Shown here: positions 5,479-12,822 of the stretch, one piece after another
How positions within the stretch are numbered: position 1 is the first letter of the stretch
Layout of the letters: each line of letters opens with the position of its first letter
From: a virus
Reading direction: 5' to 3' (one strand)
Virus genome (UHGV): UHGV-1360180
DNA length: 43,730 bases
Notes under the pieces: generated by a model
Told to the model about the DNA's origin: nothing
Seen by the model: only the letters and a program-made list of their open reading frames with translations
Databases searched by the model: none
Made by a program: the position numbers and the translations under genes

Positions 5479-5670
5479 ATGAAACACGAATATGACCGCA
5501 AACCAGCACGTGACATCGTACCGGGTGACATGATTTTCAACGTTAAGACCCGTCGGCCTGTTGCCGTCGATACGGTGTTCGTCGAGTCGGACGGTAAACT
5601 GGTTATTGAAGACGTAACCGGAAACGTTACGGCGTTCGGGCGTAAAGAGCTGGTACTGGTGGCGAAATGA
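5479..5670 (+). CDS. Hypothetical protein
   Basis: 63-aa ORF, ATG start, GGAAT/GAGAA upstream. Confidence 0.4.
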   Translation: MKHEYDRKPARDIVPGDMIFNVKTRRPVAVDTVFVESDGKLVIEDVTGNVTAFGRKELVLVAK

Positions 5671-6596
5671 ACTATTACAATGAGTGGGATAAAGGCGCAG
5701 CCGCGTGGCTGCGTGAATTAATAAAGCAGGGTCACATACCTTTTGGAATTGTAGATGAAAGAAGCATTACCGAAGTTAAACCTGAAGACCTCGACGGGTT
5801 CACCCAGTGTCATTTTTTCGCTGGTATCGGCGGCTGGCCTCTCGCGCTCAGACTTGCGGGAGTTTCGGAAGATACGCCTCTCTGGACGGGAAGCCCGCCT
5901 TGCCAACCGTTTAGCGCGGCAGGAAAGCAACTCGGACAGTTCGACCCAAGACACCTCGCGCCCGTATTCCTTGACCTCATCAGCGAGTGCTGCCCTCCAG
6001 TCCTCTTTGGTGAACAGGTTGCGCCAGCAATTGCAAAATCGTGGATGTGCGACTTACAAACTCACCTGGAGGGAGAAGGCTACGCCGTCGGGTTTGCGGT
6101 ACTCCCAGCTTGTAGCGTCGGCGCGCCACACAAACGCGACAGACTTTTCTTCGGCGCGCACAGACTGGCCCACACCGGCGGTATCACTGATAACAAACGA
6201 CGCGAACATGCGCAGCACAGACGGCAGGACGAAACCGAACAAACTGGGATGGGCTGCCGCGTTGGCGGCTTGGCCTACACCGACAGCGAACGACTACATG
6301 GGGAGCGGAAAGACAGGTATTCGCAAGGACGGGAAGGACAGGACATTCGACAGGCTGGACTACTCGACGGAGCAGGGTCTGAAAATAACACAACCAATTC
6401 GCATCACGGCTTCTGGTCAGATGCTGACTGGCTCGGATGCCGTGATGGAAAGTTCCGGCCAGTTGAACCCGGCACATTCCCGCTGGCTAATGGGATACCC
6501 GCCAGAGTGGGACGATTGCGCGGTTATGGCAATGCCATCGTCCCGCAAGTAGCCGCTGAATTTATAAAGGCGTTCATGGGGGCGGTAAATGAGTAA
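5667..6596 (+). CDS. DNA (cytosine-5)-methyltransferase with internal frame discontinuity
   Basis: Motif I FFAGIGG, motif IV GSPPCQPFS, motif VI-like LFGEQV, motif VIII PHKRDRLFF and motif X GYGNAIVPQVAAEF in frame of 5667; WPTP repeats and motif IX RWLMGYPPEWD lie in the +1 frame (ORF 5755..6552). Confidence 0.65.
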   Translation: MNYYNEWDKGAAAWLRELIKQGHIPFGIVDERSITEVKPEDLDGFTQCHFFAGIGGWPLALRLAGVSEDTPLWTGSPPCQPFSAAGKQLGQFDPRHLAPVFLDLISECCPPVLFGEQVAPAIAKSWMCDLQTHLEGEGYAVGFAVLPACSVGAPHKRDRLFFGAHRLAHTGGITDNKRREHAQHRRQDETEQTGMGCRVGGLAYTDSERLHGERKDRYSQGREGQDIRQAGLLDGAGSENNTTNSHHGFWSDADWLGCRDGKFRPVEPGTFPLANGIPARVGRLRGYGNAIVPQVAAEFIKAFMGAVNE

Positions 6597-8013: not shown

Positions 8014-8234
8014 AGAGTAGTCGTGTTAGCGAAATCGCCGCGTTGGGTTTTAAGACATTAGAAAGTGGTAAGAAAATATCCCCTCGCGCGTACGAAACGG
8101 TGGGCAGTGCGGAGATAGTTGAACTTGCTTTAAAAGTTAAGGAACTCGAAGAGGAGGTTCTACGACTACGGCAGCAAAGAGATGCCGCTAATGCTACGCT
8201 GTCGTTTGTACTGGAGAAGCTATCGGAAGAGTAG
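8010..8234 (+). CDS. Hypothetical protein, predicted coiled coil
   Basis: 74 aa, ATG overlapping helicase stop. Confidence 0.4.
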   Translation: MKSSRVSEIAALGFKTLESGKKISPRAYETVGSAEIVELALKVKELEEEVLRLRQQRDAANATLSFVLEKLSEE

Positions 8235-8262: not shown

Positions 8263-10182
8263 TTACAACGACGGCGCGTAAGTTCCGTTAAAGTTAATCG
8301 AAATGCCGGAAGATTGCAGGTTGGCAGGAGTAATTAGTAAATCTCTAAGTGTAACAACCACCCAGGGATTTGCAGTGTTTGCTTTATCACAATAAACTCT
8401 TGTCAATGTGGTAGACGCGGCATATGCGGATACACTTGCTACAGTTAATGTTCCATCGTTGGAAGCATGGTATGTAGCAGACGGCATTGACGCAGTACGC
8501 CCATGCGTTATCGCAACGGCCCCCTGACTAATGACAGAAACAGAGATATTATTGCTAATCCACGATGGAACATTAGAGGTTGAAGGCGGTCGCCCATAAC
8601 GAATCTCACCTGTGCTTGTATTGACAAGGAAAGAAACGTCAGCATACACCGTGATTTTTAAATAGAATGCATTTCCAACTGTAAGCGGTTCCGCGTAAGC
8701 TCTTACACCTGTTATAGCCGTGGTGCGATCGACATCAGCGGAAGCATAAAACCAGTTTTCTGCATTGTCTGCAATTTCTACAGAAAAATAGTCACCGTCA
8801 GAAGATACAACTAGTTTATGCACGTTAGAGATTTTCCAGTTACTGGAAGTATCCTTAGATAAAAGAACCCATTTCGCGTTATCATTGCTGTATTTAATAG
8901 TGCCCGCGGCTAATTTTGACCGTGTCCATGGTGGGGCAAAATTTGAATATTGTGATAAATCGGTTGAGGTTTTATTGCTTGCTCCACCTTTAACTAATGA
9001 CCATAATCCTCTGGCACCTTCTCGCCCCATTGTATTGTAACCGCGTTGCGTATAGTGAACACCACCATCACCTTTTAAAAATGAAGGGCAACCGTCAAAT
9101 ACTGTCACGGCATTAGTCTTGCTATTACAAACCCACCTTTGCGCATTTTGAATAGCAGCCCACGACTCTTCCGTTCGGTTCCCCGGGCAACCAACGGTAA
9201 AATTACAAAATAAATCAAAATTAATATCGGTTTTCAGGTCATCTATCAAGGCTATAAAGCTGTCTCTATAACCATTGTATGTTGTCCCTGCTGTCATATC
9301 CGACTCGCCCTGGTGGTACATCACGTAAGTTTTACCGACAGGCAAACCAGCGGCAATCATTGCCTGTTTAGCTGACGCCACTGCATTTACCAACAGCGTG
9401 TAGTATGTGGTCCCTTTTGACAGTTGTGCAATGGTAGTTGCGCCACGGCCGCAGTGTACCTCCACTGAACCGCGCCCGCTAAGGCGATACCATTCATTCT
9501 CAAATTCCCCCCAGGCATGCCCAGATGATGTAACACCAGAAGAACTAACCACATTCTGTATAATTGGTTTTATTGCTCCATCACTAAAATCATACATTAG
9601 TGATTTCGGCAGAGCGGCAGGAAATCCTGACGTATCGCCAGATAAAATAGCCTCACCTGCACTATTCGACTGACCATAAGTTATAAAAACGTCATATACA
9701 TCAGGGGCCTCCACGTATTTTGTAGCCTCTATTCTGGACACAATATCCTTGGCCTCTAGCCCGGAAATTACGACTTGGCTATTTTCCGACGCCAACTCCT
9801 CCCGCAAATCAGGGTCAGTTTGAGGCTTCCAGTCCGCATTACCTACCGGATTAAACCCAGCGGGAACTGTAACCGGTAAAGTGCCAGCGTACGAGTACCA
9901 CGTCTTGCTTACAGGGTCATACACCACTTTGTCGCGGTCATTAGCGGTTAACGTACCGCCAGTAGAGAAATCCCAAGATACAGGAGAAAAGCCAGCATCG
10001 CGTAACACCGCCGGGAGCGTCTTCTGTGTCTGACCAGTAACCGGATTAGCCGCATAATCAATATCAGCGCCACCGGCTACTCCTCCGGATTTGCCCGTGA
10101 TAACCTCGGCTTCGAAAATCTGGTGTTTCTTGGCGGTTTGTAAATCCGCCAGGCTTAAAACGTCACCGCATCCGCTTGACAT
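8263..10182 (-). CDS. Tailspike/tail fiber with SGNH/sialate-O-acetylesterase-like domain
   Basis: 639 aa, last gene of tail block; GQSNSAGE esterase-type motif (VFITYGQSNS); N-terminal region typical of phage tailspike attachment domains. Confidence 0.55.
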   Translation of the reverse strand: MSSGCGDVLSLADLQTAKKHQIFEAEVITGKSGGVAGGADIDYAANPVTGQTQKTLPAVLRDAGFSPVSWDFSTGGTLTANDRDKVVYDPVSKTWYSYAGTLPVTVPAGFNPVGNADWKPQTDPDLREELASENSQVVISGLEAKDIVSRIEATKYVEAPDVYDVFITYGQSNSAGEAILSGDTSGFPAALPKSLMYDFSDGAIKPIIQNVVSSSGVTSSGHAWGEFENEWYRLSGRGSVEVHCGRGATTIAQLSKGTTYYTLLVNAVASAKQAMIAAGLPVGKTYVMYHQGESDMTAGTTYNGYRDSFIALIDDLKTDINFDLFCNFTVGCPGNRTEESWAAIQNAQRWVCNSKTNAVTVFDGCPSFLKGDGGVHYTQRGYNTMGREGARGLWSLVKGGASNKTSTDLSQYSNFAPPWTRSKLAAGTIKYSNDNAKWVLLSKDTSSNWKISNVHKLVVSSDGDYFSVEIADNAENWFYASADVDRTTAITGVRAYAEPLTVGNAFYLKITVYADVSFLVNTSTGEIRYGRPPSTSNVPSWISNNISVSVISQGAVAITHGRTASMPSATYHASNDGTLTVASVSAYAASTTLTRVYCDKANTANPWVVVTLRDLLITPANLQSSGISINFNGTYAPSL

Positions 10183-10194
10183 ATAGAGTCCTCT

Positions 10195-12822
10195 TTAACT
10201 AAAACCGTTGCTGAATCCGTCGGAGAAACCGCGACCGAAAGGCGCGACGCCGTCGTATTTATAGAAATCTGCTTCGTAGTTAATACCGGTTATTTTAACC
10301 GTTCTGTCATCCCCGGGGTCAACTGTAGAAACAAGAATCATCTGAGCATTATGCCTTGCTTCGTTGCCGAATGAAAACTCAGTTTTTAGTGCACTATTCC
10401 CCGTGTAAATTGCCTCCTGTGGGGCGGAGAGCATAATCACCTCGCGGTCGTGGCTCCCTTGAACAACGGCAACACTCTGAACACCACCGTCGCGCTTTTT
10501 GAGAATCAGTGAGTGGTCGTCACCAGGGGTAAATGTAACTGGCTGAGAAAGAGTAAGCGTAAGCCCATTAACGGCGATTACATAACCGTCTTGGGGCGCT
10601 ACGCGTGAACCTTTAACTACGCTTATGGCGCGCCCTGGCATTGCAAAAATCCCTTCTTCTGTCGCCGTGAATGATACTGTTACCTTCTTCAACAGGTTTT
10701 TCTGGTAGCGGCGGTATGCAGCCCAGTACGCCTGTTGATAATTACGGATACCTTTAGAGTCGTACGTTTCGGTATTAACGCCACCTTCTGCTGGGATGCT
10801 GATTGTCTCTTTGACGTTAGTATCCGGGTCGATGTATGAAAACTTGAGACTATCGTATACCTGGGCGTCGTTAAACGTGCGCGTCCACTTCTCCGTAGCG
10901 GTAGTTTTGCTGCGGTGGGTGAATACCATCTCGGGGCCAATCCGCGGGCGTTCAAAGTCCAGAAGAATATCCGCCCCTCTCCGGTATGGGGTGCAGAAAA
11001 TAGCATCAGCTATTGTGCTGATAATATCCTGCATGGTCATTTTATAATCGTCAAAAGTGTAGCAGAATTGGCCTGCCTCTGCGCTACCGAAATAGTTTTC
11101 TATCTCGGTCTGAGTCGCTAACAACTTGTCCATATTGGATGTTGTTAGGTTGAGATTACCTACTACCGGGTCGCGGGCAAGACGGATTAAGGACTGAATC
11201 GCCTGAGTATTCGGCGTCATAACCGTGTCGAATGTGCCGTTGCCGAGGTATTTGTACACCATCTCTGTGGCAATCATACGTAGTTGCGGCTGCTTAATCT
11301 CCGCGGCCCGCGGCGTCTGCTTACGTGCAGAGTGCACGGTAGTACGATTGCCGTAATGCGGCGTAGTGTCGCGGACCTGACCGTAAAGGTTGATATAGGA
11401 AACCTCGTCTACTACGGTCCCCTCGAAACTGAGGTCAAGGCTAGTAACGCGGCGGGCGCGCACTCTAACTTTAGACCTCACTGGCAAGTCGGCGTAAATA
11501 GTAACACCCGTGTAATCCGCAGAACGACCTGATATAGCGGCCTGTTTTGCGTAAACTTCTCCGTACGGCACGCCTGTTTCATCGAGGAGTTGGTATTGTA
11601 GCTCCACAGTTACAGATGTACGCAATTTACTGCCGTTGTCTTTATACATACCGTTCGCTGCCGCTATGTTGGCTACTACACGTTCAACTTCCAGGCGGTT
11701 TAAGGTAGTCCAGTCCGTTAACGACTTATCGTAGGTGTTAGATGGCGAAATCCATGCTTCGGTCCCTTGCGTTAAAGGAGTGAATCCCGATGGCAATTTT
11801 TGCCATTCTGACAACATCCCTCCAACGGCAACCCTTACCTCAAAGTCGTCTACGTAGGTGACGGTATAGCTACCACTGACGTTAGCTACGTCTTTTACCA
11901 GAATAAGGTTAAAAACAGCTATGTCACCCACTGATAAAATCTCAGAGAAAGCAGAGTCGCCAGTGTTATCCCGGACTACGCCAGTTGTTCCTTGCAATGA
12001 AATCTCACCGGTATCGCTGGGGTTAACCCTGATGTCGTTCTGAGCTTTCAAAACAGCGCCATCTACCTCGTTTGAAGCAATAGTTATGTATAGATGCTGA
12101 CCGATAGGCTCCCCCACCATAAGCTGAGGCGTATTTGTGTTATTAGGCGATGTAAATGGCGCGTACACTGCGACAGAAGTTCCTGTAATCTCCTGTACTT
12201 TAGTATCGCCGTCAGTGATGTCTTCGGCCTTAATATCAAGATACCCGCGACCTGCGTCATAGTAGCCGTATTCGACTACCACACCTGCGTCGTTGAAGAC
12301 CTTATACGTAGTCATGAGGTCATTAGGGATAGTCTGGACCCTGCCGCAAATATCATACGACCGTTCATACGGACGCGGTTTATTGTTTCGGTCCGTCAGG
12401 CTGTTGTTGGGGGACTCAGCCTGCTGGTTCGCTAAACTCGTTTTAGGCGTTTTCTGCGACGGAGAAATCAACTTGGTAACAAATTTAAGCACACCCAAAG
12501 GGTCCAGGAGTTTACCCAGAAAACCACCACCGCCGCCAGCACCCTCGATGATATGGAAAACGTCATCTTCTTTCAGCGCTTCGAAGTTTTCCGTTACTTC
12601 CGTATCCTCGCCAATCTCGCCACGGTAAATACGCACAGGTACCCCGTCTGGGATGTTAGCAACGACGTATTCCATCGGGGGTACGTTATACCGTTTGCGG
12701 TCAAAAGTACCGTCTTCGTTACGGGTGTAATGTAATATCAGCGCCAAAATTCTATCTCCGCATAAGTTTCGCGCAAGTCTTCCAGTCGGTCTAACCGTAC
12801 CTGACGACTCGCTAGCTCGCAA
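10195..12822 (-). CDS. Tail tip / central tail fiber protein (J-like host specificity protein)
   Basis: 875 aa, position after tail assembly genes; poly-Gly stretch, C-terminal GFSDGFSNGFS. Confidence 0.5.
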   Translation of the reverse strand: MRASESSGTVRPTGRLARNLCGDRILALILHYTRNEDGTFDRKRYNVPPMEYVVANIPDGVPVRIYRGEIGEDTEVTENFEALKEDDVFHIIEGAGGGGGFLGKLLDPLGVLKFVTKLISPSQKTPKTSLANQQAESPNNSLTDRNNKPRPYERSYDICGRVQTIPNDLMTTYKVFNDAGVVVEYGYYDAGRGYLDIKAEDITDGDTKVQEITGTSVAVYAPFTSPNNTNTPQLMVGEPIGQHLYITIASNEVDGAVLKAQNDIRVNPSDTGEISLQGTTGVVRDNTGDSAFSEILSVGDIAVFNLILVKDVANVSGSYTVTYVDDFEVRVAVGGMLSEWQKLPSGFTPLTQGTEAWISPSNTYDKSLTDWTTLNRLEVERVVANIAAANGMYKDNGSKLRTSVTVELQYQLLDETGVPYGEVYAKQAAISGRSADYTGVTIYADLPVRSKVRVRARRVTSLDLSFEGTVVDEVSYINLYGQVRDTTPHYGNRTTVHSARKQTPRAAEIKQPQLRMIATEMVYKYLGNGTFDTVMTPNTQAIQSLIRLARDPVVGNLNLTTSNMDKLLATQTEIENYFGSAEAGQFCYTFDDYKMTMQDIISTIADAIFCTPYRRGADILLDFERPRIGPEMVFTHRSKTTATEKWTRTFNDAQVYDSLKFSYIDPDTNVKETISIPAEGGVNTETYDSKGIRNYQQAYWAAYRRYQKNLLKKVTVSFTATEEGIFAMPGRAISVVKGSRVAPQDGYVIAVNGLTLTLSQPVTFTPGDDHSLILKKRDGGVQSVAVVQGSHDREVIMLSAPQEAIYTGNSALKTEFSFGNEARHNAQMILVSTVDPGDDRTVKITGINYEADFYKYDGVAPFGRGFSDGFSNGFS

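Follow-up and report, generated by a model that had tools for sequence, protein, structure and literature searches.

Esterase spikes are an established class of phage receptor-binding proteins (RBPs), represented by gp63.1 of phage G7C, the tailspike of epsilon15 and RBPs of Klebsiella prophages. The G7C protein gp63.1 reportedly removes an O-acetyl group from the O-antigen of the host lipopolysaccharide and leaves the chain intact, and infection requires this activity. In the epsilon15 tailspike, the 'petal' domain removes acetyl groups from O-antigen galactose, an activity lost upon S787A or H1038A substitution (bioRxiv 10.64898/2026.07.31.742079). In Klebsiella prophages, SGNH domains rank among the most frequent enzymatic domains of RBPs, and two RBPs with such a domain hydrolyze p-nitrophenyl acetate (PMC13123978). 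There are also reports of deacetylating spikes in Acinetobacter and Pectobacterium phages. Besides depolymerases, esterase tailspikes are increasingly seen as a second main means for phages to read surface glycans. Here we analyzed the tailspike gene (8263..10182, minus strand) of the virus genome UHGV-1360180, a stretch of 43,730 nucleotides that is referred to in its full length as the window. The product of this gene is likely an acetyl-esterase spike that serves as the single RBP of a virulent Kagunavirus coliphage and would deacetylate a surface glycan without cleaving its chain, with an O155-type O-antigen as the most likely receptor.

Predicted SASA-type esterase domain of the tailspike

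The 8 kb surrounding the tailspike gene shares 87–90% identity with many Kagunavirus (Guernseyvirinae) coliphages, in which a tailspike is annotated at the same position, and L002, a 30-kb Logan contig, matches the flanks with 95% identity. In essence, the window thus represents a Kagunavirus genome, and the gene encodes its tailspike. Its length of 43.7 kb is typical for this genus, whose members depend on surface glycans and generally have a single RBP, the tailspike (PMC11990801). The tailspike open reading frame (ORF) encodes 639 amino acids (aa), starts with ATG and ends with the stop codon at 8263-8265. As stated in the preliminary description of this DNA, the tail module ends with this gene. 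The N-terminal part (aa 1 to ~128; 9799..10182, minus strand) is a Kagunavirus anchor for virion attachment that ends at a conserved QTDPDLR hinge. PHROG tail-spike families match aa 1-113/138 with E values of 1e-47 and 7e-40, and aa 1-132 share up to 93% identity with tailspikes of other Kagunaviruses, which bears out the N-terminal attachment region proposed earlier. The tailspike role is assigned because of this similarity to Kagunavirus spikes and because the gene directly follows that of a J-like tail tip protein.

Downstream of the anchor, a predicted SASA-type SGNH carbohydrate acetyl-esterase domain occupies aa 161-400 (8983..9702, minus strand). The Pfam family SASA (PF03629), described as 'carbohydrate esterase, sialic acid-specific acetylesterase', matches aa 163-391 with 56.8 bits (cut-off, 24.8; E = 3.2e-15), and the match covers 221 of 226 profile positions. 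Block I lies within the segment VFITYGQSNSAGE (aa 165-177) and has the motif GQSNSAGE (aa 170-177; 9652-9675, minus strand). This motif, noticed about 170 residues into the protein in the preliminary description, aligns with GQSN of PDB entry 2apj and contains the predicted nucleophile Ser172 (9667-9669). Block III, the SASA-type oxyanion-hole block, reads HQGESD (aa 290-295; 9298..9315, minus strand) and aligns with WHQGESD of 1zmb and WYQGESD of 2apj. Block V is formed by Asp372-Gly-Gly-Val-His376 (9055..9069, minus strand), with the predicted catalytic His at 9055-9057. In a profile restricted to the domain, block I corresponds to GQSN of 2apj, block III to (Y/H)QGESD of 2apj/1zmb and block V to DGLHF of the SGNH lipase 1yzf.

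A search with aa 140-639 against 5.8 billion proteins returned 84 homologues, nearly all of which carry PF03629. Conservation was assessed in an alignment of 79 homologues with identities down to 31%. Residues Y169-G-Q-S172-N173, S219, G221, H290, G292, E293 and H376-Y377 are invariant in this alignment, so that the predicted oxyanion-hole residues of both block II (S219, G221) and block III are conserved. Together with the Pfam match, the invariant YGQSN indicates that block I belongs to a real SASA domain and is not a chance tetrapeptide. The Ser/His/Asp triad, on whose conservation the esterase proposal had been made to depend, stands only in part. Ser172, HQGE (H290-E293) and His376 are invariant, whereas the acidic residue is not. 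Asp372 is located at His-4 instead of the canonical His-3 (DxxH), and the acid position varies among homologues, with E at His-3 in those of ~50% identity and D at His-2 in Pseudomonas proteins. A strict Ser/His/Asp (DxxH) triad can therefore not be asserted. SASA/NanS-type enzymes are reported to act largely as Ser-His dyads.

When the PDB was searched by sequence, the single protein and two profiles aligned only in part, with 2apj, 1zmb and 1yzf, and full fold assignment needed fold comparison. An AlphaFold2 model of aa 140-639, built on the homologue alignment with a mean predicted local distance difference test (pLDDT) score of 87.7, has a three-layer alpha/beta/alpha SGNH domain followed by two beta-sandwiches. 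Neither a beta-helix nor a beta-propeller or other glycosidase/lyase fold was found in aa 140-639 from the model and fold comparison, and Pfam detects no enzymatic domain besides SASA in the tailspike. The glycosidase beta-helix that had been named beforehand as evidence against an esterase is thus absent. A glycosidase/beta-helix spike of the P22/HK620 type and a K1-type endosialidase spike were both rejected on fold evidence.

These folds also bear on whether the SASA domain provides merely an accessory activity, with the glycan being penetrated by an unrecognized depolymerase that resides in the C-terminal domain or a different virion protein. The epsilon15 tailspike is a precedent for such an arrangement, as its endorhamnosidase is joined by an apparently dispensable SGNH 'petal' (bioRxiv 10.64898/2026.07.31.742079), and the C-terminal domain of the window spike has no close structural relative by fold comparison, so that such a function is conceivable for it. 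Given that aa 140-639 contain no glycosidase or lyase fold and that related Kagunaviruses have no second RBP (PMC11990801), we consider an accessory role extremely unlikely and favor the SASA domain as the principal activity of the spike.

Seven-residue deletion beside the predicted catalytic histidine

The loop leading into the catalytic His is conserved among the homologues as FL-x-x-DGN(I/V)GT(T/E)-(D)-G-GVH. Among the 79 homologues, the window tailspike alone lacks seven residues (DGNIGTT) directly before His376; the other 78 keep the loop. Its nearest relative is the Kagunavirus protein P0001, encoded on L002, which has 646 aa and the full loop and differs by 14 substitutions over 639 aligned residues. 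In the DNA alignment with L002, the flanks of the deletion are identical and the missing 21 bp (L002:7119-7139) lie between two TGATGG direct repeats, a signature of slipped-strand deletion. The deletion is in frame, with its junction at 9063/9064 of the window. It recreates G-D-G-G-V-H and retains Asp372, His376 and the loop-opening 'DG'. In the AlphaFold2 model, pLDDT falls below 50 at the deletion site (aa 371-373). The junction had no match in viral, metagenome and genome contig collections, a result that is uninformative as the undeleted sequence was also unmatched in the viral and genome collections.

The deletion may have crippled or abolished catalysis, in which case the spike would serve mainly as a lectin-like, non-catalytic binder of the acetylated glycan, or the genome could represent a defective, laboratory or assembly variant. 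The lost segment is nearly invariant and its loss unique, the model has its low confidence exactly there, and the event is recent, since the closest relative L002 (95-98% nucleotide identity) keeps the full loop. However, the in-frame junction restores G-D-G-G-V-H with the key residues in place, and elsewhere in the domain amino acid changes relative to L002 are not elevated (three substitutions; ratio of nonsynonymous to synonymous substitution rates, dN/dS, of 0.035). Moreover, the spike is the only RBP of the phage, so that a non-functional one would be lethal. We regard a crippled esterase or a variant genome as unlikely, and a working esterase remains the preferred reading.

It is a distinctly unlikely idea that the 21-bp microhomology deletion is an adaptive host-range mutation. 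A reshaped wall of the active site would either retarget the esterase to an O-antigen variant with a different acetylation or slow or stop its turnover, leaving the spike to bind the acetylated glycan in a lectin-like manner. If true, it would represent natural receptor switching through a microdeletion in the active-site loop of an esterase tailspike. The window protein and the intact P0001 form a natural pair for structure-function work.

A modular cassette and its candidate receptor

The region downstream of the anchor behaves as an exchangeable cassette. Similarity to the spike of phage ST20 stops sharply after QTDPDLR (aa ~128), beyond which the 848-aa ST20 protein is unrelated and has no SASA domain. 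A similarity to ST20 reaching aa 198 was only apparent and was dismissed. The cassette begins in the neck/linker (aa ~129-160; 9703..9798, minus strand), in which a single helix (model residues 5-16) is predicted amid residues of low pLDDT. For P22-type prophage spikes and gp84 of phage KP8, homology starts at aa ~122-143. From aa ~122-160 onward, the spike shares 82–88% identity with 634-aa tailspikes of P22-like E. coli prophages that carry the P22 Head_binding domain. The same region also resembles 732-aa proteins annotated as 'sialate O-acetylesterase' and proteins with T7 tail-fiber or TSP1/gp66-type N-termini. The cassette of esterase and sandwich is fused to P22 Head_binding, T7 tail-fiber N-terminal, TSP1/gp66-type and N4-like anchors.

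Within the cassette, an inter-domain linker (aa 401-420; 8923..8982, minus strand) with a short helix (model residues 267-274; low confidence at 275-281) connects the esterase to the C-terminal double beta-sandwich domain (aa 421-639; 8266..8922, minus strand), which occurs as a partner of SASA domains only. An exhaustive HMMER search of 1.84 billion representative proteins found this sandwich in 13 clusters only. A SASA domain is present in all 12 clusters of normal size, immediately upstream of the sandwich where positions were tabulated, indicating that esterase and sandwich travel as one cassette. The thirteenth cluster (P0092) is a 4104-aa repetitive protein with 13 matched stretches. The dN/dS values range from 0.04 to 0.10 in the esterase domain, reflecting strong purifying selection, and from 0.14 to 0.28 in the sandwich, whose faster evolution fits a role in specificity or assembly. 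The sandwich probably functions in trimerization and/or glycan binding. No Kagunavirus or other E. coli phage record of the INPHARED set (release 31 August 2025) contains the cassette, and no description of a SASA-type cassette on a Kagunavirus siphophage was found in the literature on Kagunavirus and esterases. The window shows the cassette on such a phage, and thereby that it moves between virulent siphophages on the one hand and temperate P22-like, T7-like and N4-like phages on the other.

The cassette was sought by megablast and blastn in 5426 complete E. coli genomes. Only two of them, MS 115-1 and EC6622, contain the full cassette, both in P22-like prophages. One prophage is inserted next to bio/ybhB, the other at argW, together with intS; because the insertion sites differ, the two prophages are independent. 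A third match, in strain IH5, was discarded as an assembly artifact that sits among truncated gene fragments. The IH5 stretch (L010; NZ_CP168949.1, 5.075-5.090 Mb), part of a RefSeq 'complete genome', contains dozens of truncated unrelated fragments (fliF, wcaM, intS, pilV, sialate O-acetylesterase). It looks like concatenated assembly debris, so that matches there are not countable as loci.

The two lysogens lead to a candidate receptor. MS 115-1 has wzy and wzx genes annotated by PGAP as 'O155 family', and a gene for a 155-aa hexapeptide acetyltransferase is located together with wzx between gnd and ugd. The galF-gnd cluster of EC6622 is unrelated; it contains rfbBDAC with different glycosyltransferases and polymerase and has no BLASTP similarity to the MS 115-1 cluster. 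What the two strains have in common is the wzx/acetyltransferase pair between gnd and ugd (L005:20024-21787 in MS 115-1; L008:19115-20878 in EC6622), with 90% amino acid identity for Wzx and 87% for the acetyltransferase. This pair is found in 10 of the 5426 genomes, including strains named O155 and O155:H21, and the chance of both lysogens being among these 10 is ~3e-6 (45/C(5426,2)). Some carriers of the pair are labeled O155 although their main clusters differ; they may be mis-typed or represent a novel O155-related O-group. In its esterase domain, the window spike is 98% identical to the spike of the MS 115-1 prophage. Most simply, the cassette would recognize an O155-type O-antigen via the acetyl group supplied by the gnd-ugd acetyltransferase, and the most likely receptor of the tailspike is accordingly an O155-type O-antigen.

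The esterase could instead be aimed at a capsule or exopolysaccharide (EPS), such as a group 1/4 capsule, O-acetylated colanic acid or O-acetylated K1 polysialic acid. The closest phage-borne homologues, with 51–53% identity, occur in Klebsiella phages, which are typically capsule-specific (PMC13123978), and the K1 capsule is the target of some Kagunaviruses (K1G, K1H; PMC10408124). The top structural matches include the 9-O-acetyl-sialate esterase NanS, and the label 'sialate O-acetylesterase' points to K1 polysialic acid as a candidate. The name SASA, however, denotes a Pfam family, NanS matches less well than 2apj and 1zmb, neither of which is a sialate esterase, and the spike has no endosialidase domain. 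Both cassette lysogens carry the O-antigen-locus wzx/acetyltransferase pair, which is rare among the genomes, an association not expected for colanic acid, which occurs in nearly all E. coli. We therefore judge a capsule or EPS target very unlikely and retain the O155-type O-antigen as the preferred receptor.

In the mechanism that we propose, the anchor would fix the spike to the tail tip, the SASA-type SGNH domain (aa ~161-400) would use Ser172 as nucleophile and His376 as general base, and the C-terminal sandwich would hold a trimer together and/or aid glycan binding. Modeled on G7C gp63.1, the spike would bind an O-acetylated surface polysaccharide and remove the acetyl group, leaving the chain uncut. 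By repeatedly binding, deacetylating and releasing the glycan, the virion would advance across this layer until it reaches the outer membrane. One specifically acetylated polysaccharide would then be required for infection, and the candidate is the O155-type O-antigen, acetylated by the hexapeptide acetyltransferase that is encoded between gnd and ugd next to wzx. The proposed deacetylation of an O-antigen or capsule is supported by analogy with tested esterase spikes, from which we infer both activity and substrate, and by the genomic association with an O-antigen acetyltransferase.

Several points weigh against this mechanism. The esterase activity is predicted by analogy. The acidic residue departs from its canonical position, as described above. 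The unique loss of the conserved DGN(I/V)GT(T/E) loop before His376, at the place where the model is least confident, could leave the esterase activity reduced, lost or retargeted. The receptor lead derives from two lysogens only (n = 2), and the accessible literature yielded no statement on whether the O155 O-antigen is O-acetylated. The acetyltransferase is nearest to EPS/colanic-acid O-acetyltransferases (EpsC, CysE, WcaB) and falls below all NCBIfam equivalog cut-offs, and an N-acetyltransferase role is possible. A capsule receptor is also conceivable, given that the ~51% identical homologues of Klebsiella phages presumably target capsules.

The tailspike findings leave current understanding unchanged. 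They provide a concrete receptor hypothesis, in which the spike recognizes an O155-type O-antigen that the gnd-ugd acetyltransferase has acetylated. With regard to predicting host ranges and engineering phages, they suggest that specificity may be readable from host modification genes, besides O-antigen backbone genes.

Gene context and comparison with known spikes

A Shine-Dalgarno sequence (AAGAGG) is located ~7 nt upstream of the tailspike ATG. A terminator scan around the gene found none, promoter-like sites in this region occur at chance level only, and NCBIfam has no model for the tailspike. The J-like gene (10195..12822, minus strand) encodes a central tail fiber/tip attachment protein, labeled tip attachment protein J in related phages, and its stop codon is followed after 12 nt by the start of the tailspike gene. 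Its product has no Pfam match, and the tailspike presumably docks on or near it. The start of the J-like gene is uncertain, as the longest ORF begins with TTG and encodes 875 aa and the L002 equivalent is called at 850 aa. The leftward tail block ends with the tailspike gene, which is convergent with a small ORF and an SNF2 helicase gene (helicase operon). Between the SNF2 helicase gene and the tailspike gene, L002 has a 171-aa ORF (L002:8066-8619) that is missing from the window (8014-8138). This ORF shows a weak Toprim-like match (E = 0.0015), and its presence or absence represents an indel in the convergent intergenic zone. A C5-cytosine DNA methyltransferase gene (5667-6596, plus strand; Pfam DNA_methylase, E = 2e-16) contains a nested 265-aa ORF in an alternative frame (5755-6552, plus strand), which is probably a chance ORF.

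The spikes of P22-like E. coli prophages (WP_024198346.1 of MS 115-1 and WP_248638078.1 of EC6622; clusters P0003, P0008 and P0013) have the same cassette and catalytic motifs as the window spike. Identity is 98% (MS 115-1) and 90% (EC6622) in the esterase domain and 80–84% in the C-terminal domain. They differ in that they carry P22 Head_binding (PF09008) on a temperate podovirus, whereas the window spike has a Kagunavirus anchor on a virulent siphovirus. They also keep the DGNIGTT loop that the window protein has lost. At a greater distance, the tail fiber gp84 of the Klebsiella N4-like phage KP8 and the spikes of the Klebsiella podophages VLCpiA3a/b and K48PH164C1 share 51–53% identity over aa 122/162-639, covering both domains. 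A partial structural proteome of KP8 includes gp84, for which an SGNH domain is predicted (PMC6950046). The KP8-type Klebsiella spikes differ from the window spike in host genus, in anchor and presumably in glycan (Klebsiella capsule).

Beyond these relatives, identities are low. SASA/NanS-type enzymes (PF03629; PDB 2apj, 1zmb, 3pt5) share 15–21% identity with the window spike, but are soluble single-domain proteins and not virion spikes. The tailspike of cyanopodophage Pan3 (PDB 9vyh) shares 12–16% identity and differs in host phylum and in its remaining domains; no paper describing its activity was found in the literature. The esterase domain of the window spike has no sequence homology to G7C gp63.1 (PDB 4qnl). 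Judged by its sequence, the window tailspike is a SASA-subfamily SGNH hydrolase, distinct from the gp63.1 sequence family, on a Kagunavirus anchor. Nevertheless, the two would share the same working mode, and like the gp63.1 type, the window spike is a virion-attached RBP with a predicted SGNH esterase as its sole enzymatic domain and no depolymerase beta-helix.

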